Virus genome (UHGV): UHGV-1374997 | DNA length: 64,000 nt | From: a virus | Reading direction: 5' to 3' (one strand) | In this document: positions 30,600 through 55,559 of the stretch, piece after piece | Layout of the letters: every line of letters starts with the position of its first letter | Numbering within the stretch: the stretch's first letter is position 1 | Notes under the pieces: generated by a model | Database searches by the model: none | Seen by the model: only the letters and a program-made list of their open reading frames with translations | What the model was told of the DNA's origin: nothing | Program-made: the position numbers and the translations under genes

Positions 30600-31895
30600 A
30601 CCGGAATTTTTACTCTGAAAGTATCTCTTAACATTTCCCTATAAACTGAGTATAATTTAATCATGAAAAGAATGCAAGCATATAAATTCCAGTTACGTCC
30701 TAAAGCCAAGCAAGCAAATCTCATGTTGGGTTTTGCCGGATGCTGTCGCTTTGTATGGAATAAGGCGCTTGCATTAGAGAAAGAAACCTATCAAGAGGAG
30801 GGCAAACGTCTTGGGTATTATAAACTTGCTGGTTTGCTCAAAGATTGGAAAAAGGAAGAAGAAACATCTTTTCTTGCTAGAGCACACTCTCAGATATTGC
30901 AGCAGGTACTAAAAGATCTTGATCGGGCTTACAAAAATTTTTTTGAGAAGCGTGCGGATTTTCCACGATTCAAGAAGAAGGGTGCCCACAATACCTTTCG
31001 ATATCCGCAAGGCTTCAAGTTGGATGAAGGAAATAGTCGCGTTTATCTTCCCAAAATAGGTTGGGTGCGTTACAGAAAAAGCAGGGCTATAGAAGGGACG
31101 CTAAAGCAAGTAGCGGTTTCTCTTTCTGCCGGAGAGTGGTATGTCTCCATCCTGACTGAGAGGGAAGTAGTTGAACATATCCATCCCTCTCAAAGCTCTA
31201 TTGGTATTGATATGGGTGTTGCCCATTTTGCAATGCTCTCTGATGGAAGCACAATTGAACCGTTGAACAGCTTTCGCAAATATGAAAAGAAGTTGGCAAA
31301 ACTGCAACGCAAACAAGCGAGATGCAAAAAGTTTTCCGCCAACTGGCAAAAGGTCAAATCACGCATTCAACGCTTGCACCTCCACATAGCTAATGCTCGC
31401 AAGGACTTTTTGCACAAGGCAAGCACAATGATTAGCAAAAACCACGCTGTTGTTGTACTTGAAGACTTGAAAGTGCGGAATATGTCCAGCTCAAAGACCG
31501 GAGGAAAACGCAAGTCAGGATTGAATAAATCTATATTGGATCAAGGGTGGTTTGAGTTCCGGCGGCAACTGTCTTACAAGCTGGCATGGATGGGTGGATC
31601 TTTGACCGCAATTCCTCCTCAGTATACCAGCCAGACCTGTAGCCGTTGCGGATGTGTAGATAAACAAAACAGACAAACGCAAGCCAAGTTTAAATGTATA
31701 GCTTGCGGATTTGAGATTAACGCCGATCACAATGCGGCGTTGAATATCTTGGCGGCAGGGCTTGCCGTTACAGCCTGTGGAGCGGGAAAGGCTCAAGCGC
31801 CCGCGTTGAATCAGGAACCCGCCTATAGTTTGGCCTAATTGGGCTTTACTGATAGGAATCCCTTGTTTGTAAGAATAAGGGAGGATGCCAAAACG
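30600..31895 (+). mobile_element. IS200/IS605-family TnpB-only element, copy 1
   Basis: Left end lies near ctgaaag (30615). Right end is taattgggctttactgataggaatccc + hairpin + gggaggatgccaaa. No tnpA. Inserted between the L-like and K-like tail genes. Confidence 0.7.
30663..31838 (+). CDS. tnpB: TnpB (OrfB_IS605) RuvC-like RNA-guided nuclease
   Basis: RuvC-I IGIDMGV, RuvC-II VVLEDL, Zn finger CSRCGC...CIACG, RuvC-III NADHNAALNI. 391 aa. Confidence 0.9.
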   Translation: MKRMQAYKFQLRPKAKQANLMLGFAGCCRFVWNKALALEKETYQEEGKRLGYYKLAGLLKDWKKEEETSFLARAHSQILQQVLKDLDRAYKNFFEKRADFPRFKKKGAHNTFRYPQGFKLDEGNSRVYLPKIGWVRYRKSRAIEGTLKQVAVSLSAGEWYVSILTEREVVEHIHPSQSSIGIDMGVAHFAMLSDGSTIEPLNSFRKYEKKLAKLQRKQARCKKFSANWQKVKSRIQRLHLHIANARKDFLHKASTMISKNHAVVVLEDLKVRNMSSSKTGGKRKSGLNKSILDQGWFEFRRQLSYKLAWMGGSLTAIPPQYTSQTCSRCGCVDKQNRQTQAKFKCIACGFEINADHNAALNILAAGLAVTACGAGKAQAPALNQEPAYSLA

Positions 31896-32042
31896 GATAA
31901 AATATGAAAATGAGAGACAAATTTTCAAAATACACAGTAATCCTCCAACTTTAGGCTGGACAGGATGCCAAAACGGATAAAACATGAAAATGAGAGACAA
32001 GTTTTCAAAATACATAGGAATCCCTTTTGTGGATCACGGAAT
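31883..32042 (+). repeat. tandem direct repeat, 2 x 80 bp (about 60 bp conserved)
   Basis: ggatgccaaaacggataaaa(t/c)atgaaaatgagagacaa(a/g)ttttcaaaataca... at 31883 and 31963. The second copy holds the real RBS and start of the NlpC/P60 gene. Confidence 0.8.
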
Positions 32043-32403
32043 AACTTCCGAAGGCTGTGATTGCTACGGCCTTGTGCTTCTCGTGTATAAAGAGGAGCTT
32101 GGCATTGATCTTCCGTGGCTCGGGGATTCCTATTCTCATGCGTATCGTAGAAAAGACGTAAACTCCACGGTAAAAAAGAACATTGATCTTGGTTGCTATA
32201 TAGACGTTACGAATGAGCCTCGCAAACCTCTTGATATTATTATTTTTAGGACTGGAGGTCTTGAAACACATATCGGACTTTGGGTTGAGGATGGATGGCT
32301 TTTGGACATACTTGAAGGGGCGCATAGTACGATTCGTAGGTACGATACGTCCGAATGGAAAAACAGAATTACGAGAATTTTGAGGCACGTAGATGCGCGG
32401 TAA
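31984..32403 (+). CDS. NlpC/P60-family peptidase, lambda K-like tail tip protein
   Basis: Cys-His catalytic motifs CDCYGLV and HIGLW. Confidence 0.65.
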   Translation: MKMRDKFSKYIGIPFVDHGITSEGCDCYGLVLLVYKEELGIDLPWLGDSYSHAYRRKDVNSTVKKNIDLGCYIDVTNEPRKPLDIIIFRTGGLETHIGLWVEDGWLLDILEGAHSTIRRYDTSEWKNRITRILRHVDAR

Positions 32404-35400
32404 AGCAATGAAAAAGCGAGCCTCTCGTAAAAGAGGGGAAATCACAGTTCTTGGTCGGCATTGGGCAAGTTCGTCTCGTGTCTCGCTCACAGTCCAAGAA
32501 GGACAATCCCTTGAAAACATCATCACAGACTCCGTAAAAATTCTTCGGGCTAACCAAGCTATTACTCCTGCATATGCTGAATATCTAAAGAAGCATTGTG
32601 TTTGCCGTGTGGATTTTATCAATATCCCTAAAGAAAAATGGGCCGTCACCTATCCTGTGGATGGTCAGCGTGTCGAATTTTTCATTAAGCCCGGTAAAGG
32701 TGGCGGTAAAAATCCTTTTGCTACAATCCTTAACATTGTTGTAGCTGTCGCTGCTATCGCAGTGCCCGTACTTGCTCCGGCTTCATGGGGGTTGATGACA
32801 GCGGCGGGAGCCTTGACTTGGACTGGTGCCGCAGTAAGTTTTGGTATCTTAACGGTTGGCTCACTCGCTGTCAATATGCTTTGCCCTCCTGCAACGCCTA
32901 AACTTAGCGGACCTAAATCTTCCGAAAAAGAATCTCCTACCTATTCAATCTCCGGAGCAAGAAATGGAGCGAATCCCTATGGTTTTGTTCCGCTTATCTT
33001 CGGAAGGAATAAGGTCACTCCTCCTTTGGCAGCGAAATCTTGGACAAATATTGAATCGGATAAAACCTATTTCAATATGTGCGTTATCTGGGGGCACCCA
33101 GATATGTCCGTAAGAGATTTTAAAATTGGGGATACGCCTTTAGAAAACTTTAAAAATATTGACCACAGATTCCATCCTTCTACCACTGGTGAAGGGCTTG
33201 TCTATTTTGGCAAATCCTTTAATGAAGAAACCGTGGGGACTTTAATCTCGAAAGAAGCTGGATATATTACTCGGACAATGGGAGAATGCGATACAATCAG
33301 CTTAGACATTACGTTCTCCAAAGGGCTGACTTCCATCAATGAAAAAAATGGAGATAACTATGATCGTACCGTTGAGTTTGAAGCTGAATATAAATTAAAG
33401 AATGATACGGTATGGAAAGGACTTGTCGGGGGGTCATTCCCTATTCGTGGGACATCTATCGAGCTTAAAAGAAAAACTGGCTTTTATTTAAACGCCGGAA
33501 GAAACTCTATTGTCTATAGTGATTTTTCTGGTAATATCAATATGGCTGATGGAGAAACAGCTCCAGTTAATACCGTTCCATTAGCAAAAGTTATTCTTGT
33601 ATCAACTCCTCATTATGAATTTGATGATGATGGAAGACAGCGGGTAACATATACATATTCATATACTTGCGAAGACTTGCGGGTAAGTTCTGTATCCGGT
33701 GCCGCTCCATATATTAATGAAGTAAAACATTATACGAAAAAATGCGGATATGGACTTGGAAGCAGATGGGGATATACTTGCGTCGAAGTTTATGATTATT
33801 CGACTTATGAAATTGTCATTCCTGACCAATATGTGAATGGCATTAACAAATTTGCCATCTCTGGACAGCAATTAAAGCCCTTGACCCGTACTTATACTGT
33901 GAATGTTCCTCACGGAGATTACGATGTTCGTATTCGAAGACTTACTGATGATAATTCAAATAAGTATATCTATGATGAAGCTACGTGGGCGACGAAAAGG
34001 GCTATTGTAAATCGTCAATCTTTTTCAACTCCTGTTCCCGTATGTGTTTCTGAATTGCGTATTCAGGCATCGGAACAGCTTTCTGGATACGTCGATAACT
34101 TTAATGCTATTTGCACGGCATTGATTCCAGACTTTAACACTAGCAATAATACGTGGGAATGGAGAGAAACGAGAAATCCCGCATCCGCTTATAGATACGC
34201 ATTGACCTCCCGTCACGCTTTGAATACGCCCTATACGGAAGATAAACTCGACGAACCGACATTGCGGGAGTTCCATAAATATTGTACCCGAATGGGTTGG
34301 ACTTTCGACTTTGTTTGTGATACAGAAGAAAATCTGTGGTCACGTCTTACCCAGATAGCTGCGGCAGCACGCGCTTCCGTAAGTACGGAGATAGATGGAA
34401 AGTATGGTGTAGTAATCGACGATAAGGATAAGGTACCTGTGCAGCAGTTCAACCAGCGTAATAGTTGGGGGTTCAGCATGGAAAAACTTTTCCCTAACGT
34501 CCCTCACGCGCTCAGAATCAAATTTGTTAACAGTGAAAATAATTTCCTGCAATCGGAGGATTTCTGCTATGCGGACGGATTTGATAAAAACAATGCCACG
34601 GATATTCAAGAAATTGATTTTCCCGGCATTACTACGTGGACAAACAACTGGAAGCAAGGAAGATATCATTTAGCCTCACAGCTTCTTCGTCCTTTAAGCG
34701 TTACAATCAATGCTGATTGGGAGCACAGAATGTGTCATCGCGGAGACGTTATTGAAATTTTCCATGACGTTCTCATGAACACTTTCGGGGCGGCTCGTGT
34801 TGTAGGGTTGATTTATCAGGATACGGAAGGGGCGGAATACATTGTTTATGAAAACTCCGAAAGGCCCATTGATACTCCTGCTGTAGGCGTCGTTCTTGAC
34901 GATTCCATTGTTTTTAGTGAACGAGATGTACTTTATGGTATTGCAATCAGAAATCCATATGGAAAGACGGTCACATATCAAATTAGACCCGAATTTGGAG
35001 AAGAGCATTCCTATATCTATTTCACTTTTGCAATATCATATGCTACTACTCCCTATATTGGAGATTTAGCTAGCGTATCATTAATGGGCGAGGCGAATGA
35101 TAAATACCTCGTAACTCAGATTGCCCCCGCTGAAAATTCCTCGGCGGAAATTAAGGCGATTCCATATTCTCCCGAAGTCCTCGACGCGGATAAAGGAGAA
35201 ATTCCTCCTTGGAATCCTCCTATTATCATTGATAAATTGCCTACCTATACTATCCCCAATCCTACTATTATACAGATAATTTCCGATGAGTCCATGCTCG
35301 TTAAGATTGGGCAGAATATCATTCCTCAAGTCGGTATCTGGTTTAAAGTTGGGGATGGAACCTCGTTAGATTGTGTGGTTTATGCTCGTGCAAAGAAAAC

Positions 35401-37633
35401 ACAAGAAACAGCTTGGGGCAATACTGTCCGAACTTCCGTATCCGAAGGATATGTAGTCATCTCGAATATGGAGTCTGGCGAGCTATATGACTTGTCTATC
35501 CAAGTTACCGATCCTGTACGGGGAATTAGCAGTGATTGGATAACTCAAACCGGATATTTCGTTATTGGAAAAACCGCGCCGCCTCCTGATGTGGACGGCG
35601 TTACCGCTGAGCTTCTTCCTCCGTCCGGGGTAAAAATCAGTTGGAATCCCGTAGCCACTCTTGATATAGATTACTATGCTGTTCAAGGGGACATTACAGG
35701 GAAAACGATTGACACGAGTATCATACTTCCCGTCCCAAATAAATTCGGCACATTGAATATGACAGTTAGCGCAGTGGATACGCTTGGAAATTTTTCCTTG
35801 CAACCTGCCCCCGTTTCTGTTACTATTCAAAAACCTAAAAACCCTGTCATTAAAACGGAAGTCACTATCGATGGCCTTAAATTGAGTTGGACAGATTGTA
35901 CAACTTCTTGGCCTATCAAGAATTATGAAGTTCATGATGAATATATGTCAAGAACGGAATTTTCTAATGTGACTTCAATATATGTGTCGCCAAGACCTGT
36001 GGGTAATTATAAATTCACAGTGAAAGCTATAGACATTTTTGGAAATGAATCTGGTACTGTTCCTGCATTTATTGAAGTGGATCTTCTCGGGAGGGTCCAG
36101 CCGACAGCAAGAATTGATGGCGCTGATATTCTGTTAGAATGGCCTATTGTATCGTCGGCGTTTCCGATAGATGAATTCGAAATCGTTGAAGGGGATTTCA
36201 CTCCGGTAGGTAGGGCTAAAGTCAACTATTTCCGAGTTCCTGCGGGAGCTGTCGGGTTTCATGAATGGAAAATCCGAGCACGAGATATCGTCGGTAACTA
36301 TGGAGATTGGGGTGAAGTTTCTATCGAGATTAAAGCCGCCGCAGCACCAACTGTAAAAGCGACAATTCAAGAAGATAAAATCCTTATTTCTTGGGTAGCG
36401 CCTTCAACAATCAATTTACCAATAACTGAATACGAGATAGAAAATAGTACGACAGGAGAATCTTTCGGAAGGATTAATGCGACACAGATAGTCGTACCTC
36501 CTGAAAAAACCGGAAACCACATTTTCAGGGTTCGTAGTTGGGATACTGGAGGAAATGCTGGAGCATGGGGTCAAACGAGTTTCCGAGTCGAAGCTCCCGG
36601 CAGAGTTTATATAACTCCTACCGTCATCGACAATAACGCGCTTCTTGTTTGGACTGAACCTTCCACGGTATTCTTTCCAATTCATCATTATGAGGTACTT
36701 CGTGGGGATGAATTGGAATACGCGGAACTTATTTTCAATGTCAACGCTTTGATTGTCAATATCTTTGAAGCTGTATCCGGTAATTATACATATTGGGTTG
36801 TTCCGGTAGACGTAGCAGGTAACAAAGGCACCGCAACTCCCATTACTTGCGTAATTTCTCAGCCTCCGGATTATGTTCTTTTCTATGATTGGGATTCCGT
36901 TTTCTCTGGAACACGCCATAATTTTGTTCTTGATGGCATTGGAGGGATGATTGGCCCTATCGTAGATGAGAATGAAACGTGGGCACAGAATATTGCACGA
37001 TTCGGTGGAACGACAGCGAACTCTACATGGAAAAACAAGGTGGATATTGCCGGACCTACTTGGATGGAACCAGCAGGTACAGAGGGGTGGTATCAAGAAG
37101 AATTTGATTATGGACAAATCATGCAGTCCATCAGACTTGTGGTCACACCTACGGTTCAAATTCTTTCCGGCACGCCTCTGTATTATGTTAAAGTTGAATT
37201 TAAAGTGGATGTGAATGACCCGTGGGAATTAGCCGCAGAAAATGCTACGCCGGTGTTTTTACAGCGATTCCGGTATATCCGATTTACACTTGGAATGCTT
37301 CCGGACTCCACGGGACTTATCCGAGTGTCCGAACTGAACCTTAAATTCGACGTTAAAATTCGAAATGACTCTGGTGTCGCTTTGGCTGAGGCAAATACGA
37401 ACGGTCCAGAATGGCCCGGAAACGCAAATGATACTGGAAATCTGGTAAACTTTTCTATGCCGTATCTCGATGTATGGGAAGTTACGGCTGCACCTGAAAG
37501 TGAAGATGCGGGATTGGTCGCCTTGGTTTCTTTCCAAGACATTCCTTCCCCCAAGTTTTTCAGAGTATCTCTTTTCAATAATAAGGGCGAACGCACTACG
37601 GGGAACGTAGTGTGGAAAGCAGTAGGAATATAA
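32393..37633 (+). CDS. tail tip host-specificity protein, lambda I-J-like fusion with five FN3-like repeats
   Basis: N-terminus resembles gpI (KPGKGGGKNPF followed by a hydrophobic segment). Large J-like body. Five tandem repeats of about 85 aa (W..P....I..YEV...) span roughly 35570-36870. Confidence 0.7.
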   Translation: MRGKAMKKRASRKRGEITVLGRHWASSSRVSLTVQEGQSLENIITDSVKILRANQAITPAYAEYLKKHCVCRVDFINIPKEKWAVTYPVDGQRVEFFIKPGKGGGKNPFATILNIVVAVAAIAVPVLAPASWGLMTAAGALTWTGAAVSFGILTVGSLAVNMLCPPATPKLSGPKSSEKESPTYSISGARNGANPYGFVPLIFGRNKVTPPLAAKSWTNIESDKTYFNMCVIWGHPDMSVRDFKIGDTPLENFKNIDHRFHPSTTGEGLVYFGKSFNEETVGTLISKEAGYITRTMGECDTISLDITFSKGLTSINEKNGDNYDRTVEFEAEYKLKNDTVWKGLVGGSFPIRGTSIELKRKTGFYLNAGRNSIVYSDFSGNINMADGETAPVNTVPLAKVILVSTPHYEFDDDGRQRVTYTYSYTCEDLRVSSVSGAAPYINEVKHYTKKCGYGLGSRWGYTCVEVYDYSTYEIVIPDQYVNGINKFAISGQQLKPLTRTYTVNVPHGDYDVRIRRLTDDNSNKYIYDEATWATKRAIVNRQSFSTPVPVCVSELRIQASEQLSGYVDNFNAICTALIPDFNTSNNTWEWRETRNPASAYRYALTSRHALNTPYTEDKLDEPTLREFHKYCTRMGWTFDFVCDTEENLWSRLTQIAAAARASVSTEIDGKYGVVIDDKDKVPVQQFNQRNSWGFSMEKLFPNVPHALRIKFVNSENNFLQSEDFCYADGFDKNNATDIQEIDFPGITTWTNNWKQGRYHLASQLLRPLSVTINADWEHRMCHRGDVIEIFHDVLMNTFGAARVVGLIYQDTEGAEYIVYENSERPIDTPAVGVVLDDSIVFSERDVLYGIAIRNPYGKTVTYQIRPEFGEEHSYIYFTFAISYATTPYIGDLASVSLMGEANDKYLVTQIAPAENSSAEIKAIPYSPEVLDADKGEIPPWNPPIIIDKLPTYTIPNPTIIQIISDESMLVKIGQNIIPQVGIWFKVGDGTSLDCVVYARAKKTQETAWGNTVRTSVSEGYVVISNMESGELYDLSIQVTDPVRGISSDWITQTGYFVIGKTAPPPDVDGVTAELLPPSGVKISWNPVATLDIDYYAVQGDITGKTIDTSIILPVPNKFGTLNMTVSAVDTLGNFSLQPAPVSVTIQKPKNPVIKTEVTIDGLKLSWTDCTTSWPIKNYEVHDEYMSRTEFSNVTSIYVSPRPVGNYKFTVKAIDIFGNESGTVPAFIEVDLLGRVQPTARIDGADILLEWPIVSSAFPIDEFEIVEGDFTPVGRAKVNYFRVPAGAVGFHEWKIRARDIVGNYGDWGEVSIEIKAAAAPTVKATIQEDKILISWVAPSTINLPITEYEIENSTTGESFGRINATQIVVPPEKTGNHIFRVRSWDTGGNAGAWGQTSFRVEAPGRVYITPTVIDNNALLVWTEPSTVFFPIHHYEVLRGDELEYAELIFNVNALIVNIFEAVSGNYTYWVVPVDVAGNKGTATPITCVISQPPDYVLFYDWDSVFSGTRHNFVLDGIGGMIGPIVDENETWAQNIARFGGTTANSTWKNKVDIAGPTWMEPAGTEGWYQEEFDYGQIMQSIRLVVTPTVQILSGTPLYYVKVEFKVDVNDPWELAAENATPVFLQRFRYIRFTLGMLPDSTGLIRVSELNLKFDVKIRNDSGVALAEANTNGPEWPGNANDTGNLVNFSMPYLDVWEVTAAPESEDAGLVALVSFQDIPSPKFFRVSLFNNKGERTTGNVVWKAVGI

Positions 37634-37652
37634 TATATGGAGAACCCCCGAA

Positions 37653-39623: not shown

Positions 39624-39638
39624 AGGAAAAATCTCATT

Positions 39639-45205: not shown

Positions 45206-45213
45206 TTTTAACC

Positions 45214-46493
45214 CTGAAAGCACTTCTTGACATTTTCTTACAAACAAGCTATGGTTTAAGCCATGAAAAGAATGCAAGCATATAAATTCCAGCTCCGCCC
45301 CAAAGCCAAGCAAGCAAATCTCATGTTGGGTTTTGCCGGATGCTGTCGCTTTGTCTGGAATAAGGCGCTTGCATTGGAGAAAGAAACCTATCAAGCGGAG
45401 GGCAAACGTCTTGGGTTTTATAACCTTTGTAAGGCCCTCCGCGATTGGAAAAAGGAAGAAGAAACATCTTTTCTTGCTGGAGCACACTCTCAGATATTGC
45501 AGTTTGTATTGAAGGATCTTGATCAGGCTTACAAAAATTTCTTTGAGAAGCGTGCAAATTTCCCACGATTCAAGAAGAAGGGTGTCCACAATACCTTTCG
45601 TTATCCGCAAGGCTTCAAGTTGGATGAAGGAAATAGCCGCATTTATCTTCCCAAAATAGGTTGGGTGCGTTACAGAAAAAGCAGGGTCATAGAAGGGACG
45701 CCAAAGCAAGTAGCGGTTTCTCTTTCTGCCGGAGAGTGGTATGTCTCCATCCTGACTGAGAGGGAAGTAGTTGAACATATCCATCCCTCTCAAAGCTCTA
45801 TTGGTATTGATATGGGTGTTGCCCATTTTGCAATGCTCTCTGATGGAAGCACAATTGAACCGTTGAACAGCTTTCGCAAATATGAAAAGAAGTTGGCAAA
45901 ACTGCAACGCAAACAAGCGAGATGCAAAAAGTTTTCCGCCAACTGGCAAAAGGTCAAATCACGCATTCAACGCTTGCACCTCCACATAGCTAATGCTCGC
46001 AAGGACTTTTTGCACAAGGCAAGCACAATGATTAGCAAAAACCACGCTGTTGTTGTACTTGAAGACTTGAAAGTGCGGAATATGTCCAGCTCAAAGACCG
46101 GAGGAAAACGCAAGTCAGGATTGAATAAATCTATATTGGATCAAGGGTGGTTTGAGTTCCGGCGGCAACTGTCTTACAAGCTGGCATGGATGGGTGGATC
46201 TTTGACCGCAATTCCTCCTCAGTATACCAGCCAGACCTGTAGCCGTTGCGGATGTGTAGATAAACAAAACAGACAAACGCAAGCCAAGTTTAAATGTATA
46301 GCTTGCGGATTTGAGATTAACGCCGATCACAATGCGGCGTTGAATATCTTGGCGGCAGGGCTTGCCGTTACAGCCTGTGGAGCGGGAAAGGCTCAAGCGC
46401 CCGCGTTGAATCAGGAACCCGCCTATAGTTTGGCCTAATTGGGCTTTACTGATAGGAATCCCCCGCTTTTAGGCGGGGGAGGATGTCAAATAA
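45214..46493 (+). mobile_element. IS200/IS605-family TnpB-only element, copy 2
   Basis: Left end cctgaaagcacttcttgacatttt. Right end taattgggctttactgataggaatccc + ccgcttttaggcgggg hairpin + gaggatgtcaaataa. Confidence 0.7.
45263..46438 (+). CDS. tnpB: TnpB (OrfB_IS605) RuvC-like RNA-guided nuclease
   Basis: 391 aa. The C-terminal 230 aa are identical to copy 1. The N-terminal region matches copy 3. Confidence 0.9.
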   Translation: MKRMQAYKFQLRPKAKQANLMLGFAGCCRFVWNKALALEKETYQAEGKRLGFYNLCKALRDWKKEEETSFLAGAHSQILQFVLKDLDQAYKNFFEKRANFPRFKKKGVHNTFRYPQGFKLDEGNSRIYLPKIGWVRYRKSRVIEGTPKQVAVSLSAGEWYVSILTEREVVEHIHPSQSSIGIDMGVAHFAMLSDGSTIEPLNSFRKYEKKLAKLQRKQARCKKFSANWQKVKSRIQRLHLHIANARKDFLHKASTMISKNHAVVVLEDLKVRNMSSSKTGGKRKSGLNKSILDQGWFEFRRQLSYKLAWMGGSLTAIPPQYTSQTCSRCGCVDKQNRQTQAKFKCIACGFEINADHNAALNILAAGLAVTACGAGKAQAPALNQEPAYSLA

Positions 46494-46582
46494 CTCCGTC
46501 GACGGTCGTGGACGCATTTCAATATTTAAAACTCTGCGCTATATTGCCCCCATGATGTTAATCATCACTTGGGGGCTTTATT

Positions 46583-47542: not shown

Positions 47543-48112
47543 ATGGAATCTGAACGCGAATCTTCCATGAACTTCGGCTGGATCTTTATCGTGCTGCTCC
47601 TGTTCTTCGGGATCTTCGGCGGTGGCTTCGGCTGCGGTGGCAACGGCCTGTTCGGTCGTGGTAATTGCGGTGGTGCCGCTGCTGTTGCTGGTACTGAGCT
47701 TGCTGATCTGGTCGCGCTGCGCTCCGTGCTTGGTCACAAGACCATGACGGATAACTGCCAGACCGACCGCGATGTTCTGGAACTCAAGTGCAACATGACT
47801 GCGCAGAACGCTGTGCTGACGCAGCGGCTTGAAACTGCCTTCCGCACGATTATCTCTAATCAGGACGCTGGTTTCTCGGCTCTGCGTACTCAGATGCTCG
47901 AAGACCAGATTCGTACCCGCGACATGACCCTGATGGCTCAGAACAACGAAATTCAGGGGCTCAAGGCGCAGATGTACAATGACGGTCGTTTCAACGCTCT
48001 GGAACGCTCCATTGAAGCTGGTTTCTGCCAGACTGTCAAGCGTCCGCCCTTCTTCCCCGTGGGTTGCTCCCCGTGCGTGAATCCTTGTGGTTGCGGTGGC
48101 GTCACCGCCTAA
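47543..48112 (+). CDS. membrane protein with Gly/Cys-rich segments and coiled coil; GC-rich codon usage
   Basis: RBS ggagaa. TM helix followed by GGGFGCGGNG, and a C-terminal CSPCVNPCGCGG. Local GC is around 58% against roughly 42% overall. Confidence 0.5.
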   Translation: MESERESSMNFGWIFIVLLLFFGIFGGGFGCGGNGLFGRGNCGGAAAVAGTELADLVALRSVLGHKTMTDNCQTDRDVLELKCNMTAQNAVLTQRLETAFRTIISNQDAGFSALRTQMLEDQIRTRDMTLMAQNNEIQGLKAQMYNDGRFNALERSIEAGFCQTVKRPPFFPVGCSPCVNPCGCGGVTA

Positions 48113-48136
48113 CACGGGCTGATTTCACCTTGATAT

Positions 48137-48164
48137 GAGAGGGGCGCAATTAAACCCCTCTCAT
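48137..48164 (+). terminator. hairpin tgagagggg...cccctctca
   Basis: Directly after the 47543 gene. Confidence 0.45.
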
Positions 48165-48189
48165 TAACCACAATGTACGGAGAATTACT

Positions 48190-48627
48190 ATGTGCAATCG
48201 CTGCTGCATTCCGTGCATCCGTGTAGCAAGTATCACTACAACCGCCACGACTGCGACTCTTACTCTGGCTACCAGTATCCCGGTAGGAAGATTTGATATC
48301 GTAGTTGGAAAGAACTTGTGCATCAGTCCTTGTGCTGATGAAAAAGTTCAGATTGTTGCTGGAGGCGATACGTTTACGAACGTACTCAACACCTCTGGGA
48401 ACTATCTTACCCTTGGACAACTTTCTCGTTTCGTTCGATGCGGCTGCCGCATTCGTATGACTCAAACGAGCAATCCTGCGGGTAACATCATGGCTATTGA
48501 TGTGTCTTGCCCCGGCCCTAACGGAGTACCCATCGTAAACTGCGGGACATCTTTGCTTCCCGCAACCGCCTCTGCTTCCCTCGCTTCCCCGGAACTTGAC
48601 AAGTCGGAAGCCCCCGCTAAGAAATAA
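48190..48627 (+). CDS. Cys-rich hypothetical protein
   Basis: N-terminus MCNRCCIPC. 145 aa. Confidence 0.4.
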   Translation: MCNRCCIPCIRVASITTTATTATLTLATSIPVGRFDIVVGKNLCISPCADEKVQIVAGGDTFTNVLNTSGNYLTLGQLSRFVRCGCRIRMTQTSNPAGNIMAIDVSCPGPNGVPIVNCGTSLLPATASASLASPELDKSEAPAKK

Positions 48628-48734
48628 AGTATCCGGGATTTGGGAACATACGTAGCCTATGACTACGTAACCCCTACCGCGCAGCGTGGGACGATTTTTA
48701 TCTTCTCGCGCTGCGTTTTTATTAAGGAAATACC

Positions 48735-49124
48735 ATGTTTAGATTAGGACTCGGTATCCTGTTAGGATGGCTTATCTTTGATGAAGAAGGGAAAAAGGCT
48801 TCGAATAAGGCTGGTAAATTTATCAAAGATAAATCCGGTGAAGCCATAGACTATGCGTCTAAGCATATTGATACGGATAAAGTCGCTGATTTCGTTAAAA
48901 AGCAAATTTCCCCGAAAGGCATCGCTGAAAATATCGCCCAAGACGTAGCTGAGGATGCTATCATAGATACGGTTGCAGAGGAAGCTGTGCTTGGTAATGC
49001 CGCCGGAGGCATTCTAGCCGGAGAAACTTTGGCTACCGAACGAAACAACGAAAATTTGAATCAAATTGATCTTCTTCAACAGCGCGTGGATGCTTTGACA
49101 GCGGAAACCACGCCCATTATATAA
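48735..49124 (+). CDS. hypothetical protein with N-terminal hydrophobic segment
   Basis: 129-aa ORF. Confidence 0.4.
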   Translation: MFRLGLGILLGWLIFDEEGKKASNKAGKFIKDKSGEAIDYASKHIDTDKVADFVKKQISPKGIAENIAQDVAEDAIIDTVAEEAVLGNAAGGILAGETLATERNNENLNQIDLLQQRVDALTAETTPII

Positions 49125-49144
49125 CCACCACAAGGAAATGAATC

Positions 49145-49669
49145 ATGCACGATAGCAAATCCGCCGAAAAGATTGCAAAAGAAGAGTATAAAGAAGAACT
49201 TGCATTCTTGGAAGAACTTGAACATGAAATTGGCGAGCATTGTGAAGCTGGCGTCAAATCAATGCCCCATGTCGAAAACACTCGTGAACTACTTAAAGCA
49301 CATAAAGAATTGTGCCATTATCTCATGTATAAGTGCGCTATTCATGAAATGTCGGAATATTCCGAAGTGTATCATGAGATTGAAGACGTTATTGAAAATC
49401 CGCCCCATACGTGGTATCCCTACATGGATAAACCGGGCGGGCACATGAATATCATTGAGATGGAAGTCGGAGAGATGATGCACGCCTATGAAGGAATGCG
49501 CGCCACGCCTCCCACGATGACCCATGCTCAATTCGTACACGAGCTTAAACATGCCGCCGCCGCAATCTGCTACGCTCTGGAAGAAATGACCTGCTCTGAC
49601 AAGGAATACCATAAAAAGCACCATTTCCATAAGCCGTATCCCGAAGAATACGGTTCTAAGGCGAAATAA
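49145..49669 (+). CDS. His-rich hypothetical protein
   Basis: 174 aa with many His and Glu residues. Confidence 0.4.
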   Translation: MHDSKSAEKIAKEEYKEELAFLEELEHEIGEHCEAGVKSMPHVENTRELLKAHKELCHYLMYKCAIHEMSEYSEVYHEIEDVIENPPHTWYPYMDKPGGHMNIIEMEVGEMMHAYEGMRATPPTMTHAQFVHELKHAAAAICYALEEMTCSDKEYHKKHHFHKPYPEEYGSKAK

Positions 49670-49671
49670 TC

Positions 49672-49881
49672 ATGAACATCGAATCTGATCGCGGGATAGA
49701 TACAGGACAATCGGAATCTAAGACTTTCGGATGGATACCTTGTGCATTATGCAAGGCATGGATTCCGATTGTCAAAGACGGAGTACACGAACCTCCGAAA
49801 CACGGTATCTGCCCGTATCGGAAGCCCTCTAAATGCAAAACGGAACCTAGCTTCGGTTGTCGTTGGGGCTTTACTGCTTAA
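49672..49881 (+). CDS. hypothetical small protein
   Basis: 69-aa ORF. Confidence 0.3.
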   Translation: MNIESDRGIDTGQSESKTFGWIPCALCKAWIPIVKDGVHEPPKHGICPYRKPSKCKTEPSFGCRWGFTA

Positions 49882-49916
49882 TCAGAAATTCTCCCTACCT
49901 CCTTCCCATCCCTCCC

Positions 49917-49950
49917 TTAAAGGCGTCTATCCGGACGCCTTTTTCTTTTC
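49917..49950 (+). terminator. rho-independent terminator
   Basis: aaaggcgtc-tatccg-gacgccttt followed by ttcttttc. Confidence 0.6.
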
Positions 49951-49979
49951 TTGACAAAAATGTAAAATGAAGCTATACT
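49951..49979 (+). promoter_or_regulatory. sigma70-like promoter TTGACA-17-TATACT upstream of terminase
   Basis: Consensus-like hexamers with 17-nt spacing. Shares the 17-mer TTGACAAAAATGTAAAA with 19375. Confidence 0.55.
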
Positions 49980-50022
49980 TCTTTGATAATACCATTTTTG
50001 TCAGATAAGGAGAGGAGTTTCA

Positions 50023-52158
50023 ATGGCTAATGTAAAACCCATAACGACTAAACAATTCAATCAAAATAAAAAGCATATCACCGACATCCATTGGTACGCC
50101 GACAATGTTCTTAATGGAAATGTTCAGGTCTGTAAATACATTAGAGCATTATGCAAGAACTTTAAAGATGACCTCGCCAATAAAGACCTTGATTTTTATT
50201 TTTCAGAAGAATCAGCTATCCGAGTAATTTGTTTTATCGAAAATATGGTGCATGTCAAGGGCGTTCTTACCGGGCAACGGTTAAAACTTGAACCTTGGCA
50301 GAAATTTTTTGTCGGTAACATCTTCGGCTGGCTGGACAAGAAAAACAATCTCCGCAGATACAGAGAGGCAGCTCTTATCGTTCCCCGAAAAGCTGGCAAG
50401 GCTTTAGCTGTAAGCACTCCAATCCCTACTCCCGAGGGTTGGGTCACGATGAATGATTTAAAGCCCGGAGACGCCGTTTATGGGCCAAATTCGGATATAC
50501 GGAGAGTAGTAGCCGCAACGGAAGTGATGTACGGAAGGCCGTGCTACGAAATTTCTTTCAATGATGGTTCTTCTATTACGGCTGACGCGGAACATCTTTG
50601 GAAAATTGATGGTAAGAATATCGTAACCTCCGAAAGTCTGCATCAAATTTTGTCTCACAATGGCAGAAAGCCTAAAGTATGGGTAGCCCCGAATGTAAAA
50701 CGGCATGATGGCGAGACGGTACCTGTGGTAAGATTCATTACGGATTGTAAGCCTGTGGAAAGCGTTCCAGTGAAGTGTATACAGGTTGATAATGAGGACG
50801 GAATGTATCTTTGCGGGGAAACGTATATTCCGACTCACAATAGCAGCCTTGCGGCGGCTATTGGACACTATATGTTGGTTGGTGAAAAAGAAAAAGGTTC
50901 GGAAGTATACTGTGGCGCAACCACGGAAGTTCAGGCATTTGTGCTGTTCAACATTGCTCGGGACATGATTGTCGCCAATAAAGCATTTGAAGAGGCATTC
51001 GGCCTGACTTATACTAAAGAGTCTATTCATGCACAATCAACACTTTCTACGTTCAAGCCTATTATCGGAAGCCCAAAGGACGGTAGTAACCCTCAGTGCG
51101 CTATCGTTGACGAGTATCATGAACATCCTTCGGACGCGCTGTATGACTCGTTGAAGCTCGGTATGGGCGCTAGACAACACCCCCTCTTGCTTGTTACTAC
51201 TACCGCAGGGACAAACATCAAAGGGCCTTGCTATCGTTACGTTGAGCAAGGCAGAAAGGTCGTGTTGGGGAAAGCAAAGAACGATAGATTATTTTACATG
51301 GAGTTTACCATTGATGACACGGACAAATGGGAAGATTTTTCGTGCTGGATTAAAGCCAGTCCAAACTTCGGAGTTTCCGTATCCGAAGAGTTCTTGCGCG
51401 AGCAATACGAAATAGCCAAATCATCACAGTACAAGCGCTCATCTATTCTTACCAAAATGCTGAATGTTTGGAACAACGAATCGGTGGGATGGATTGACTT
51501 TCCTAAATGGCTTAATTGTACTGACAGAAATCTAAAGATGGAAGATTTTGAAGGCGAGAAATGCTGGATTGGCATTGACTTAGCCTCTAAAGTCGACTTA
51601 ACTGCAATGGTTGCCGTCTTTAAGCGCGATGGTAAATTCTATGTTTTCGGAAAATACTATCTTCCTTCTGATACTGTAGATAGGCCGGAGAATGACCATT
51701 ATCGGGGCTGGCGAGATGAAGGCTGGCTGACCGTAACGCAAGGGGCTCGAACGGACTATCACGCTCTGGAAGAAGACCTGCAAAATTGGGCTGATAAATA
51801 TGCTATTCAGGAAGTAGCATACGACCCTAGAGAAGCCGAATATCTTATGCAGAATATCCGGGAATGGGCAGCTTTTGAATGTATTGAGTTTACCCAATCC
51901 TCTGCCACTTTCTCTGAGCCGATGAAAGAGTTTGAAGCTGCGTACCTTAACGGGGAACTTTTCCACCAGAATGACCCTATCCTCAATTTCGCAGCAGGGA
52001 ATGTCGTCCTGAAATCCACAACGAACAAACTTGTCTATATGACCAAAACGGCAAATGAAAATAAAATCGACCCGATGGTTGCTATGATTATGGCAATCGC
52101 TAGAGCAATGGAAGATAAAGAAGAAGAGGCGTCAGATCCGTTTATTATGTTCCTTTAG
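50023..52158 (+). CDS. terL: terminase large subunit, interrupted by a mini-intein
   Basis: Removing residues 127-273 joins the Walker A motif PRKAGK|SSLAAAIG, matching the canonical VPRKNGKS[TS]LAAA. The C-terminal nuclease domain is present. Confidence 0.8.
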   Translation: MANVKPITTKQFNQNKKHITDIHWYADNVLNGNVQVCKYIRALCKNFKDDLANKDLDFYFSEESAIRVICFIENMVHVKGVLTGQRLKLEPWQKFFVGNIFGWLDKKNNLRRYREAALIVPRKAGKALAVSTPIPTPEGWVTMNDLKPGDAVYGPNSDIRRVVAATEVMYGRPCYEISFNDGSSITADAEHLWKIDGKNIVTSESLHQILSHNGRKPKVWVAPNVKRHDGETVPVVRFITDCKPVESVPVKCIQVDNEDGMYLCGETYIPTHNSSLAAAIGHYMLVGEKEKGSEVYCGATTEVQAFVLFNIARDMIVANKAFEEAFGLTYTKESIHAQSTLSTFKPIIGSPKDGSNPQCAIVDEYHEHPSDALYDSLKLGMGARQHPLLLVTTTAGTNIKGPCYRYVEQGRKVVLGKAKNDRLFYMEFTIDDTDKWEDFSCWIKASPNFGVSVSEEFLREQYEIAKSSQYKRSSILTKMLNVWNNESVGWIDFPKWLNCTDRNLKMEDFEGEKCWIGIDLASKVDLTAMVAVFKRDGKFYVFGKYYLPSDTVDRPENDHYRGWRDEGWLTVTQGARTDYHALEEDLQNWADKYAIQEVAYDPREAEYLMQNIREWAAFECIEFTQSSATFSEPMKEFEAAYLNGELFHQNDPILNFAAGNVVLKSTTNKLVYMTKTANENKIDPMVAMIMAIARAMEDKEEEASDPFIMFL
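50401..50841 (+). other. mini-intein (147 aa, Ala1, class-3-like WCT features) in terminase P-loop
   Basis: Block A ALAVST. Block B TADAEHLW. Blocks F/G VKCIQVDNEDGMYLCGETYIPTHN followed by extein Ser. There is no homing-endonuclease domain. Confidence 0.7.
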
Positions 52159-52165
52159 CGTACGT

Positions 52166-52247
52166 TAACACATACAATAGCACCCGATTAATCGCGGAAT
52201 CAATGGAAAGAGATTCATAGATTAATCGGGTGCTATTGTATGTGTTA
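52166..52247. repeat. 30-bp perfect inverted repeat with 22-nt spacer
   Basis: gttaacacatacaatagcacccgattaatc ... gattaatcgggtgctattgtatgtgttaac. Lies between the convergent terL (+) and the 52262 gene (-). Confidence 0.8.
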
Positions 52248-52261
52248 CTAGTTAAGAACTA

Positions 52262-52678
52262 TTAAAGGAACAATCCTTCTCCTCCAAAATGATATTCAGG
52301 TTGCTTATACCGCTCAATGACAAGACCCGGAGAGGAAAATCTTTTAATCAGATACAGGATCATATCAATATATTCTTCCGCGTTAAGTTGATCAAAATCA
52401 AATCCTCGATAAATATTGCTTTTATAATGATCAAGATATCCGGAAGATTTCAAGAAAGCCACACCTTTACTTCTTTTATCCAGATAAGAGTCGCTTCTCG
52501 TAAAATCAAAATTTTTAAGCACCCTTTCATATGCTACTTCAAATTGAGCTACATCAGAGACTCTATATTTGAATGTTTTCTTTTTACCATCTCCCAAAGT
52601 GACACTGATTTTGATGATTTCCATATGTTCATTCCTTATTAATTGATTTAAGAAATAATGTATGAACGCATCTATCAA
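52262..52678 (-). CDS. hypothetical protein
   Basis: 138-aa ORF. Confidence 0.4.
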   Translation of the reverse strand: MIDAFIHYFLNQLIRNEHMEIIKISVTLGDGKKKTFKYRVSDVAQFEVAYERVLKNFDFTRSDSYLDKRSKGVAFLKSSGYLDHYKSNIYRGFDFDQLNAEEYIDMILYLIKRFSSPGLVIERYKQPEYHFGGEGLFL

Positions 52679-52856
52679 TTATGAAACAAACGCTAATGAT
52701 AGGCAGTAAAAAGAAGAAAAAGGTTATACTAAAATCTTTTGATCTTAGTTCATCGGAAAATAGAAGTAATCCAATCGCAAAGATTATGGAGCTTATTGTC
52801 AGGTCATAGTATTTAAGAGCCTGTAAATTCTTTGCGAAGAATATTGATCGCTTCAT
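52629..52856 (-). CDS. small membrane protein
   Basis: 75 aa with two hydrophobic helices. Confidence 0.35.
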   Translation of the reverse strand: MKRSIFFAKNLQALKYYDLTISSIIFAIGLLLFSDELRSKDFSITFFFFLLPIISVCFIIDRCVHTLFLKSINKE

Positions 52857-53061
52857 TTATGGCATCCTCTCCTTCGGTCGTATCGAAAATGATATCGTGT
52901 GTTAATCCTTCCTTTAAAAATATAGTTATGACATTATCTTTCTTCTTAATTCCGACAATACTGTCAATTTCAAAAAATTCAATATCGGATGATAGGGTAT
53001 TGTCAAAAATAAGATAATTTTTTTTTGAGCGTAAAGGCTTTTCATCAAGATTATAATACAT
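52813..53061 (-). CDS. hypothetical protein
   Basis: 82-aa ORF. Confidence 0.35.
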   Translation of the reverse strand: MYYNLDEKPLRSKKNYLIFDNTLSSDIEFFEIDSIVGIKKKDNVITIFLKEGLTHDIIFDTTEGEDAINEAINILRKEFTGS

Positions 53062-53329
53062 TTTTAATCCCCTTTTTATTTACGACATAAAAACGCTGAC
53101 CTTTCGGTGGATCTGGCCTTTCAGGGCAAACCCACCCTTTTGGATGCGAGACTATATGGGCTCCTGCTTTGTCATCTTCATTCCCTAGTAGGTAGAATAA
53201 CAGAAGGATAAGAAGCGCGGAGAATATTATGATAAACACTGTCTCTATCCTCCTTTGAAGGAAATACAAATCTTCGATCAAAAATTTCAGTTTTAGTTTC
53301 CAACGATATGACCAATTCATGGTAGTCAT
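53051..53329 (-). CDS. hypothetical membrane protein
   Basis: 92 aa with a hydrophobic helix. Confidence 0.3.
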   Translation of the reverse strand: MTTMNWSYRWKLKLKFLIEDLYFLQRRIETVFIIIFSALLILLLFYLLGNEDDKAGAHIVSHPKGWVCPERPDPPKGQRFYVVNKKGIKNVL

Positions 53330-53421
53330 CGTAGTCCCCGCGCATAAGAATGATGCGGTCTAAATCAATAGCTATTTTCCTTTCAAGCGTGACGCCATAC
53401 TAAAAGCTATAAAGTTTCATT

Positions 53422-53643
53422 CTACCCCCTATTACTACTCATTATGAGAAGTCTAGAAAATGCTTCATCTCTACATTCCTCGGAAGAAAAAGAATACTCA
53501 AAAACATGGTCTTTATTGCTTCCGCATAGTATAATTTGAAGTTTCATACTGCCATTTTCCTTACTCATTGAGATTATTCTATGCGTGTCAATGGCTTCTA
53601 CGAATTCGTTATTCATTCCAAATCGAAAATTTACCAATTTCAT
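53422..53643 (-). CDS. hypothetical protein
   Basis: 73-aa ORF. Confidence 0.3.
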   Translation of the reverse strand: MKLVNFRFGMNNEFVEAIDTHRIISMSKENGSMKLQIILCGSNKDHVFEYSFSSEECRDEAFSRLLIMSSNRG

Positions 53644-54011
53644 GCCGATCCCTTCCCTTTCCGATAGTCGGAGGTTATTTTTGAATGACAGGATTTACAT
53701 AACGCCATAAGGTTGTTTTCGTCAAGTATTTTTCCACCCTCGTTAATAGGAATGATATGGTGGACTTCGTTAGCCACGTTAGGGAATGGGGTCGTTTTCT
53801 CGCATTCCTCGCAGAAGGGGTGCTTCCTGAGATAACGCTCACGAACTTTCTTCCACCTTGAATCGTACCCTCTTTCCGCCGGGGTTCCGCGCTTCATATC
53901 ATATCGTTTATCTGACGAGATTCTGTGCTTGGCACAATCTTCGCAGTACCCCGAAGGGTGATCCGTTGGCTTTTTACAGTGCTTACATGGTTTTTTTGGT
54001 CTAGGGGGCAT
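53640..54011 (-). CDS. HNH endonuclease
   Basis: Cys pairs CKHCKK...CEDC and CEEC...HHIIP...N...LCKSCH. Confidence 0.75.
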   Translation of the reverse strand: MPPRPKKPCKHCKKPTDHPSGYCEDCAKHRISSDKRYDMKRGTPAERGYDSRWKKVRERYLRKHPFCEECEKTTPFPNVANEVHHIIPINEGGKILDENNLMALCKSCHSKITSDYRKGKGSA

Positions 54012-54107
54012 ATATGGACCTCCATAATTAATCGTATTTTATTGATAAGGTTCCAGCGGAAAGAAACCACGCCAGTCTATAGACAGCTCCACTAAGTTGG
54101 TCTTTGC

Positions 54108-55375
54108 TTATTTGACATCCTCCCCCGCCTAAAGTCGGGGGATTCCTATCAGTAAGGCCCAATTAGACCAAACTATAGGCGGGTTCCTGATTCAACGCGG
54201 GCGCTTGAGCCCTTCCCGCTCCACAGGCTGTAACGGCAAGCCCTGCCGCCAAAATGTTCAACGCCGCATTGTGATCAGCGTTAAATTCAAATCCGCAAGC
54301 TGTACATTTAAATTTGGCTTGCGTTTGTCTGTTTTGTTTATCCACACATCCGCAACGGCTACAGGTCTGGCTGGTATACTGAGGAGGGATTGCGACCAAA
54401 GATCCACCCAACCATGCCAGCTTGTATGTCAACTGCCGCCGGAACTCAAACCACCCTTGATCCAATATAGACTTATTCAAACCTGACTTGCGTTTTCCTC
54501 CTGCCTTTGAGCTGGACATATTCCGCACTTTCAAGTCCTCAAGCACAACAACAGCGTGGTTTTTGCTAATCATTGTGCTTGTCTTGTGCAGAAAGTCCTT
54601 GCGAGCATTAGCTATGTGGAGGTGCAAGCGTTGAATGCGTGATTTGATCTTTTGCCAGTTGGAGGAAAACTTTTTGCATCTTGCTTGTTTGCGTTGCAGT
54701 TTTGCCAACTTCTTTTCATATTTGCGAAAGCTATTCAACGGTTCAATTGTGTTTCCATCAGAGAGCGTTGCAAAATGAGCAACACCCATATCAATACCAA
54801 TAAAACTTTTAGACGGATGAATAGGCTCCGGAGCTTCACGCTCTGTCAGAATGGATACATACCATTCTCCAGCAGAAAGAGAAACCGCTACTTGCTTGAG
54901 AGTCCCTTTTATAGCCCGGCTTTTTCTGTAACGCACCCAACCTATTTTGGGAAGATAAACGCGGCTATTTCCTTCATCCAACTTGAAGCCTTGCGGATAG
55001 CGAAAGGTGTTGTGAGCACCTTTCTTCTTGAATTGAGGGAAATTTGCACGCTTCTCAAAGAAATTTTTGTAAGCCTGATCAAGATCCTTCAATACAAACT
55101 GCAATATCTGAGAGTGCGCTCCAGCAAGAAAAGATGTTTCTTCTTCCTTTTTCCAATCACGGAGGGCCTTACAAAGGTTATAAAACCCAAGCCGTTTTCC
55201 CTCCGCTTGATATGTTTCTTTCTCCAATGCAAGCGCCTTATTCCAGACGAAACGGCAGCACCCGGCAAAACTCAACATGAGATTTGCTTGTTTGGCTTTA
55301 GGACGTAACTGGAATTTGTATGCTTGCATTCTTTTCATGGCTTAAATTATACTCAGTTTATAGGTAAATGTCAAG
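54108..55375 (-). mobile_element. IS200/IS605-family TnpB-only element, copy 3 (inverted)
   Basis: The right end matches copy 2 through gggggaggatgtcaaataa. The left end carries a 68-bp copy-specific segment with a G9 tract. Beyond that, 55443-55476 matches the upstream flank of copy 1. Confidence 0.7.
54163..55338 (-). CDS. tnpB: TnpB (OrfB_IS605) RuvC-like RNA-guided nuclease
   Basis: 391 aa. Motifs IGIDMGV, VVLEDL, CSRCGC...CTACG and NADHNAALNI are intact. About 93% identical to copies 1 and 2. Confidence 0.9.
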   Translation of the reverse strand: MKRMQAYKFQLRPKAKQANLMLSFAGCCRFVWNKALALEKETYQAEGKRLGFYNLCKALRDWKKEEETSFLAGAHSQILQFVLKDLDQAYKNFFEKRANFPQFKKKGAHNTFRYPQGFKLDEGNSRVYLPKIGWVRYRKSRAIKGTLKQVAVSLSAGEWYVSILTEREAPEPIHPSKSFIGIDMGVAHFATLSDGNTIEPLNSFRKYEKKLAKLQRKQARCKKFSSNWQKIKSRIQRLHLHIANARKDFLHKTSTMISKNHAVVVLEDLKVRNMSSSKAGGKRKSGLNKSILDQGWFEFRRQLTYKLAWLGGSLVAIPPQYTSQTCSRCGCVDKQNRQTQAKFKCTACGFEFNADHNAALNILAAGLAVTACGAGRAQAPALNQEPAYSLV

Positions 55376-55559
55376 TTATTTTTTTTTCGGGATAGGGGGG
55401 GGGGTTATCGCAAGTCTTTATAGTCTATTATTCATGAGTAAAGGCAAAAATTCCAGTTAAGGTGCGCCTTATATCCTCCCCCTAAAGAGAGAGAGAGGTT
55501 TTACGGCGCGTCCGATAAAAAGCATATAATGTGGCTTACGAAATTATTATTCATGGATT

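Follow-up and report, generated by a model that had tools for sequence, protein, structure and literature searches.

Three TnpB-only elements in a gut phage genome, probably tnpA-deleted derivatives of the IS200/IS605 family

The window analyzed in this study comprises 64,000 nt of the virus genome UHGV-1374997 and corresponds to positions of about 24358-88357 (L001 offset) of an 88,380-bp metagenome-assembled contig (JGI 3300045988). Its genes are those of a tailed phage and include genes for a helicase, a RecE-like exonuclease, RtcB, NrdD, portal, capsid, and large terminase, as well as tail genes for a tape measure, a minor tail protein, NlpC/P60, and a gpJ-like (tail tip) protein. Among these genes lie three copies of an element encoding the RNA-guided nuclease TnpB in an open reading frame (ORF) of 391 aa. 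The DNA of the three copies is 91-95% identical over approximately 1.27 kb, and the TnpB proteins are 92-96% identical. All three proteins passed the Pfam cut-offs of HTH_OrfB_IS605 (PF12323), OrfB_IS605 (PF01385), and Cas12f1-like_TNB (PF07282), and residues 3-369 of each could be aligned to the TnpB of ISDra2 (8EXA/8H1J; phmmer E=8e-56). The RuvC triad D183 (GIDMG), E267 (LEDL), and D355 (NADHNAA) and the zinc finger CxxC...CxxC are intact in all three. A sequence-only reading of this DNA had reported three 391-aa TnpBs with intact RuvC I/II/III residues and Zn finger at exactly the positions at which the Pfam-matching ORFs were found, and both statements hold. The locations it gave also stand, as copy 1 lies between the genes for the minor tail protein and NlpC/P60 (K-like), copy 2 follows a 426-aa tail-like gene, and copy 3 is part of the leftward block, where it adjoins an HNH endonuclease gene. 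That the three insertions are carried by one molecule rests on the metagenome assembly. The following features were assigned to the three copies.

30589..31891, plus strand: element copy 1; empty alleles of relatives join window position 30588 to approximately 31972, right end set by the covariance model
30589-30610, plus strand: truncated left end of copy 1, starting GGCGCACC, the 3' arm of the left-end hairpin
30628..30656, plus strand: promoter-like TTAACA-17-TATAAT of copy 1, 6 nt upstream of the ATG, without Shine-Dalgarno sequence
30663..31838, plus strand: tnpB-1, 391 aa
31760..31891, plus strand: predicted omega-RNA scaffold and right end of copy 1, finishing GCCAA at 31891, with the terminal hairpin variant CCCTTG...TAAGGG
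31892..31911, plus strand: predicted guide of copy 1, AACGGATAAAATATGAAAAT, preceded by TTAT in empty alleles
31892..31971, plus strand: 80-nt scar 3' of copy 1, consisting of a target duplicate and then a right-end remnant (31937-31971)
45212..46489, plus strand: element copy 2, starting CCCTGAAAG, 35 nt further in than copy 1
45227-45255, plus strand: degenerate promoter TTGACA-17-TATGGT of copy 2
45263..46438, plus strand: tnpB-2, 391 aa
46360..46489, plus strand: predicted omega-RNA scaffold and right end of copy 2
46490..46509, plus strand: predicted guide of copy 2, ATAACTCCGTCGACGGTCGT
54112..55514, minus strand: element copy 3, with complete left end, promoter, tnpB, and right end
55439..55514, minus strand: left end of copy 3, hairpin GCGCC...GGCGC, preceded by TTTAT
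55346..55374, minus strand: perfect sigma-70-type promoter TTGACA-17-TATAAT of copy 3, 7 nt from the ATG
54163..55338, minus strand: tnpB-3, 391 aa
54112..54241, minus strand: predicted omega-RNA scaffold and right end of copy 3
54092..54111, minus strand: predicted guide of copy 3, ATAAGCAAAGACCAACTTAG, preceded by TTAT in empty alleles

The tnpB mRNA of copy 3 is probably leaderless, as judged from the predicted promoter.

The nearest TnpBs in reference genomes share 75-76% identity with the window copies and derive from gut Desulfovibrionaceae (Desulfovibrio, Mailhella). In several of these bacterial loci a 138-aa TnpA of the HUH/Y1 type is encoded divergently, 20 nt upstream of tnpB. The left ends of the Desulfovibrionaceae relatives start just past TTAC or TTAT with a long imperfect hairpin (GCGCC...GGCGC), and their right ends finish GGATGTCAA; the right end of the family reads ...GATAGGAATCCCCCG-loop-CGGGGGAGGATGTCAA. 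In its left end copy 3 shares 89-100% identity with the Desulfovibrionaceae elements, and about 65 nt of filler occupy the place where tnpA should be. Among the window copies the left-end hairpin is complete only in copy 3 and shortened in copies 1 and 2. The same tnpA-deletion architecture is found in three Desulfovibrionaceae relatives (L008, L184, L186).

The earlier statement that the window contains no Y1 TnpA was borne out, since tblastn with four TnpAs of the same insertion sequence (IS) family returned noise only and a profile hidden Markov model of 21 TnpAs reached a best E-value of 0.45 against the six-frame translation. TnpA was also not found in the IMG/VR contigs of the phage family or, in the relatives, within the 10 kb preceding the window. 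Because relatives of about 76% identity do carry a TnpA, the window copies are to be regarded as tnpA-less, non-autonomous derivatives. Elements of this TnpB-only layout are commonly referred to as IS1341-type. Protein, ends, target, and RNA all point to the IS200/IS605 family, and only a TnpA of their own is missing. It is therefore very probable that the three copies are non-autonomous tnpA-deleted IS200/IS605 derivatives of IS608-like architecture, belonging to a phage-family lineage with at least 10 sites.

IS608 of Helicobacter pylori, the IS200/IS605 reference member, inserts 3' of a TTAC-type tetranucleotide, has a TCAA right end and subterminal hairpins, and carries tnpB adjoining the right end. 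The phage elements resemble it in all these respects. They differ in that tnpA is missing, TTAT is preferred by the phage lineage, two of the three window copies are devoid of the left-end hairpin, and several insertions lost DNA between two targets. With IS1341-type TnpB-only elements and PATEs they share the status of tnpA-less non-autonomous derivatives keeping IS605 ends. In contrast to these, the lineage described here is resident in a phage family and its left ends were eroded stepwise.

The progenitor architecture of copies 1 and 2 is shown by a fragment from ENA (L303), whose element shares 98.4% identity with copy 2 but has its left end complete, directly behind TTAC. The left ends form an erosion series from full (copy 3, L303) over copy 1 and copy 2 to the shortest form, found in sister phages at a site termed A. 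In 5/5 phage copies with a full left end, and in all relatives, this end is preceded by TTAT or TTAC (TTAY). Two alternative assignments were discarded. A left boundary inside the TTGACA -35 box, with TTGAC as target, was rejected because the copies with full left ends put the true end about 150 nt upstream, preceded by TTAY. The sequence CTTTAGGGGGAGGATATAA upstream of copy 3, considered as a second right-end remnant, turned out to be the left-end hairpin; its similarity to the right end is also seen in other IS605 elements.

Two further observations concern the left end. The (CT)n run in the hairpin loop and the poly-C/poly-A filler tract differ in length between copies (CCCCCCCCCC versus CCCCGCCCC), and the variable tracts (window 55380-55500, minus strand; L272 and L275, 1330-1460) are suggestive of microsatellite-like slippage inside the element. 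An unrelated IMG/VR contig (L067:1700-1770 and 4120-4190) contains miniatures in which the left-end hairpin is fused to the right-end terminus, with TTACC directly followed by TAGCGCGCCGTAAAGC...GAGGATGTCAA. These are PATE-like derivatives of the same IS family.

The right ends share a conserved predicted structure. From an alignment of 58 right ends, whose TnpBs are about 34% to 100% (mostly 53-77%) identical to those of the window, a consensus fold of 25 predicted pairs was derived, 20 of which are supported by compensatory changes. Paired cells amounted to 93.7% versus 38-49% with the partners slid by 1-3 columns, cells with double changes to 232 versus 41-63 in the slid controls, and none of 500 shuffles reached the observed values. 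A covariance model (R1) built from 49 sequences, all from outside the phage family, gave exactly three matches in the window. All were full length and finished at the TCAA terminus (GCCAA in copy 1), with 97.4 bits for copy 3 (E=1.5e-30), 93.9 bits for copy 2 (E=2.2e-29), and 69.5 bits for copy 1 (E=2.5e-21). An omega-RNA had been proposed for the 3' ends of the elements, and it is at these right ends that the three candidate scaffolds lie. Their position and layout are consistent with those expected of a TnpB guide-RNA scaffold. The structure alone is no proof of an RNA role, because the terminal hairpin would likewise be the binding site of TnpA in single-stranded DNA.

The guide was taken as the 16-20 nt past TCAA, the length of 20 nt being assumed by analogy with characterized TnpBs. 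Every predicted guide equals the phage DNA adjoining the right end, as in an ordinary transposon, and hence no dedicated target is apparent. In empty alleles TTAY adjoins the guide match, which is consistent with RNA-guided cleavage. The elements encode a compact 391-aa TnpB with a defined predicted RNA scaffold and, as its likely motif, TTAY. Domain order, RuvC D-E-D triad, and zinc finger are shared with the ISDra2 TnpB, whose guide RNA (omega/reRNA) spans the 3'-end of tnpB and the right end and takes its guide from the flank, an arrangement that is predicted here. The two proteins are distant homologues, as reflected in the E-value given above, and the motif of ISDra2 is TTGAT as opposed to the TTAY inferred here.

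Related RNA-based or TnpB-derived systems fit less well. At the gathering threshold no Rfam family was matched in the whole window, neither a curated omega-RNA model nor a group I intron, and only 50-150 nt are available upstream of tnpB, which argues against an IStron. Apart from the two-unit 80-nt scar behind copy 1, no repeat lies near a tnpB, which argues against a type V CRISPR-Cas (Cas12) system. A proto-CRISPR array was considered for this repeat and rejected, as it has two units only, both 'spacers' represent one and the same target sequence, and its second unit corresponds to a degenerate right end of another hairpin type. TldR is a TnpB-like repressor of prophages which has lost the RuvC catalytic residues and uses a dedicated guide against a host promoter. 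It has in common with our elements that a TnpB-family protein is encoded in a phage genome. D183, E267, and D355 are intact here and the guides are derived from the flanking phage DNA, and for these reasons the elements are not TldRs.

Empty alleles were obtained from 9-10 IMG/VR contigs that are 90-98% identical to the window. The relatives originate from human-gut metagenomes, and genomes of the phage family measure roughly 85-90 kb. Inspection of the same loci in related phages, which the sequence-only reading had proposed, revealed that sites 1, 2, and 3, holding copies 1 to 3 in the window, are empty in all of these contigs, and that both flanks of each copy are collinear with them. Copy 2 represents a precise insertion after TTAA without duplication or loss, and an independent assembly from another sample (L304) has the same allele with identical joints. 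In sister phages, seven more sites are occupied by the element.

5543..5558, plus strand: site A, empty in the window; at least 21 contigs of many different gut samples carry the element here, with identical TnpB
9037..9153, plus strand: site B, empty in the window, upstream of RtcB; occupied in L006 and L007
57588..57722, minus strand: site C, empty in the window; occupied in L272
Site D: in the tail region
Site E: in an accessory block absent from the window
Site 3': in the small ORF also hit by copy 3, 50 nt away
Site F: just upstream of the HNH gene

These data bear on the question whether the phage contig is a chimera assembled from repeated IS reads of different strains or of the host. 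The metagenomic origin of the assembly and the identity of copies 1 and 2 over nt 500-1173 would fit such an artefact. Overall, the copies nevertheless differ by 4-8%, their flanks are collinear with the relatives, the joints are exact, and the alleles of sites 2 and A recur in independent assemblies of other samples, so that we consider an artefact extremely unlikely.

In the empty alleles the right-end joint is preceded by TTAT at sites 1, 3, and 3', by TTAC at site C, by TTAA at sites A, 2, and F, and by CTAA at site B. Since the right end itself finishes AA, the placement of these joints carries an uncertainty of 1-3 nt. At sites 3, C, 3', and F, left and right end attach to separate TTAY/TTAA sites, and the phage DNA between them (71 nt, 133 nt, and >1 kb) is lost. 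At site C, for instance, TTTAT precedes the left end and the right end is attached behind a TTTAC that lies 133 nt away, and copy 3 replaces 71 nt of a small membrane-protein ORF which is kept in all relatives. The right joint is always exact, and the left joint of truncated copies always falls at a short identity between target and element, namely TCTTGACAT at site A, GGAT(AT)AA at sites 1 and B, and GA-TTTTA at site 2. The TTGACAT joint at site A corresponds to a 9-nt microhomology deletion, and the occupied allele lacks precisely the 16 nt that separate the left-joint identity from the insertion point of the right end. This placement agrees with a full insertion that later underwent a deletion between short direct repeats.

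TnpA generally moves such an element and TnpB restores it. For the phage lineage we propose that a Y1 TnpA acting in trans, probably supplied by a host-borne relative, made the new insertions, because exact joints at a fixed tetranucleotide are a signature of Y1 TnpA chemistry. The host TnpA would move the forms with full left ends, such as copy 3, into TTAY sites by the single-strand 'peel and paste' route, a step that we regard as somewhat more probable than its negation. Left ends would later have been eroded by deletions between short repeats, leaving copies 1 and 2 immobile. TnpB with its omega-RNA would cut the TTAY-flanked empty allele and, within a cell, restore an excised copy. Restoration of excised copies is the known role of TnpB cleavage (Meers et al., PMC10055086). 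Whether TnpB and the right-end RNA of the phage elements possess this cutting activity at all is, in our estimate, evenly balanced. A carrier would be immune to its own TnpB, because the occupied allele has TCAA instead of TTAY before the guide match.

Several findings weigh against this proposal. A source of TnpA was found neither in the window nor in the IMG/VR contigs of the family. A number of right-side targets are TTAA or CTAA instead of TTAY, and the loss of DNA at sites 3, C, 3', and F is unlike a textbook clean insertion. Copy 2 has a degenerate promoter, and copy 1 an altered terminal hairpin. Two points concern exchange among the copies, namely that the 670-nt identity of copies 1 and 2 could reflect consensus building in the assembly instead of gene conversion, and that at site A the element (94-96% identical between L003 and L005) is more diverged than its flanks (98-100%), which is not a simple co-conversion signature. 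The contrast at site A suggests, from comparison of these two alleles, exchange among elements.

Other traces of exchange were found within and around the copies. All 39 differences between copies 1 and 2 fall within the first 500 nt, with the other 670 nt identical, and copy 3 compared with a site-A copy displays the reverse pattern; such clustered differences point to gene conversion among copies. The 80-nt scar at site 1 contains a diverged duplicate of the target together with the first 15 codons of NlpC/P60, carrying variants of another genotype (as in L081), and its solitary right-end remnant has a different type of hairpin. Furthermore, the two units of the 9-nt repeat flanking copy 1 differ from each other (left, AATGGATAA; right, AACGGATAA), and each variant is found in relatives. 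The scar with its other-genotype variants and this repeat suggest that site 1 has undergone recombination between two phage genotypes.

In mixed infections a cut by TnpB might convert an empty sister phage through recombinational repair by the phage's own recombination genes, which comprise a DUF2800 nuclease, an Enc34-type single-stranded DNA-binding protein, and the RecE-like exonuclease. TnpB natively acts in homing, and RNA-guided homing between co-infecting phages is plausible. The TnpB elements would then act as free-standing RNA-guided homing endonuclease genes, and copies immobile for TnpA (sites A, 2, and 1) would spread by cutting the empty alleles of sister phages, the break being repaired from the occupied genome. 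The 9-nt repeat and the donor-type flank at site 1 would be repair scars. We put this forward tentatively, as the less probable extension of the scheme. Homing endonucleases of the Seg and Mob type in phage T4 (intronless homing, marker exclusion) offer a parallel, as they too are nuclease genes between conserved phage genes, are polymorphic among relatives, and leave the occupied allele immune since the target is split. They differ in that target recognition would here be by RNA, and no clear co-conversion signal was seen in the phage elements. According to a 2026 review, 'transposon non-restorative homing' into co-infecting phages is theoretical, with evidence from plasmids only (PMC13565253). 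If it held, the homing explanation would provide a natural case.

Ten tnpB copies from nine sites all have a full-length ORF, and D183/E267/D355 are kept in 10/10 phage-family copies examined. The median pairwise ratio of nonsynonymous to synonymous substitutions (dN/dS) is 0.16, with dS up to 0.39, and by this measure TnpB is shown to be under purifying selection. This is relevant to the view that the copies are decaying relics, i.e. passenger IS fragments with no activity left, which could account for the missing tnpA, the truncated left ends of copies 1 and 2 with their lost hairpin, and the degenerate -10 element of copy 2. Such a view is difficult to reconcile with the full ORFs and catalytic residues of the ten copies, the low dN/dS, the right-end RNA structure kept in all three window copies, and an insertion polymorphism among phages of 93-98% identity that points to recent movement. 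We therefore judge it very unlikely.

TnpB homologues are present in 617 of 50,697 deposited phage records, and megablast of copy 1 against the INPHARED phages gave no match. Identical insertions in a host chromosome had been named as the sign of a trivial passenger IS, an expectation that was not borne out, as no genome among the GTDB representatives has a TnpB closer than 76% to the phage copies. Among the matches listed, the clade of at least 88% identity is confined to contigs of 19-92 kb or fragments of 1-5 kb, and every one examined is phage-like. The G+C content is 42-46% for phage and element versus 56-62% for the Desulfovibrionaceae genomes. Judged by these sequence comparisons, the element lineage is phage-resident and actively evolving. 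The tnpB of cyanophage A-1(L) is similarly present on one phage only and absent from its close relatives, and is a recent passenger because it is identical to five host copies (bioRxiv 10.64898/2026.02.14.705889). In our case, by contrast, the nearest genomic relative is at 76%, with the clade on phage-like contigs or short fragments only.

The sequence-only reading had left a choice between IS colonization of the phage and co-option of the nucleases by it. Colonization is supported by the IS ends, the TTAY target, the right-end RNA, and the varying position of the copies. Co-option would mean that the TnpBs are no longer selfish and serve the phage as RNA-guided weapons, in anti-defence or superinfection exclusion, or as regulators. 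The purifying selection, the restriction of the clade to phage-like contigs or short fragments, the wide distribution of TnpA-immobile copies with eroded left ends (e.g. site A), and the strong promoters of the elements would agree with this. Nevertheless, the guides equal the flanking DNA at every site, the sites differ among sister phages and most relatives are without the window's copies, copy 3 destroys a conserved ORF, the intact RuvC triad excludes a TldR-type repressor, and no CRISPR-like array is present. Co-option is thus unsupported and very unlikely, if a little less so than the relic view, and colonization by tnpA-deleted IS derivatives is preferred.

The object as such is ordinary, because phage TnpB elements are common and TnpB-only and miniature derivatives are known. 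Less ordinary are the phage-resident clade, the three copies in one genome, and the traces that insertion, erosion, and exchange have left at the population level. More than 70 assemblies of the phage family are indexed, and dozens of its near-identical genomes from the gut constitute a natural population in which the same TnpB element is present or absent at no fewer than ten sites, with exact empty alleles and a graded series from TnpA-competent to TnpA-immobile elements. The phage family hence provides material to ask if an RNA-guided nuclease drives through a phage population like protein homing endonucleases do.

Some individual insertion sites have additional peculiarities. The minus-strand block at 53600-56700, whose gene content is highly variable among relatives, is an insertion hot spot with at least three independent TnpB-element insertions within about 250 bp (copy 3, L276/L277, L303), clustering round the beginning of the HNH gene and the small membrane-protein ORF. 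This gene, next to copy 3, encodes a 123-aa HNH endonuclease (53640-54011). In one relative (L096:5250-5330) about 34 nt (AATAGGAGCATACCGTATATTCGGATAATCTTAAA, present twice) are tandemly duplicated precisely at the empty target of site 2. In the site-B copy of L006 (8259-8270) the tnpB stop codon TAA is changed to CAA, and the ORF reads on into the right-end region.

The phage family is rich in GIY-YIG and HNH homing endonuclease genes. A 251-aa homing-endonuclease-like gene lies at 10971-11726 of the window, and its equivalent in relatives gave faint matches to SegE GIY-YIG/NUMOD3. The DNA polymerase A gene of the window (6910-9036) is intact with 707-708 aa and varies across sister phages (L300-L302, L262-L270). 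A 282-aa GIY-YIG gene divides it into parts of 454 and 370 aa in L301, and in L302, L264, and L269 the product has 1081-1082 aa and may contain an intein or a fused insert. RtcB is intact, absent, or split across the sister phages. The large terminase (50023-52158) is unusually long with 711 aa, and terminase profiles match residues of about 15-245 and 273-705 separately, which suggests an inserted segment or a fusion.

No tRNA was found in the window by a tRNA scan, and a host could not be assigned, the nearest cultured phage by portal protein having less than 40% identity. Close to the end of the window (63418-63593) are three overlapping direct repeats with 37/74-nt spacing (TTAGCT...CCCCACCT..CCAAAAATG), which could be iterons or repeated promoter/operator sites.

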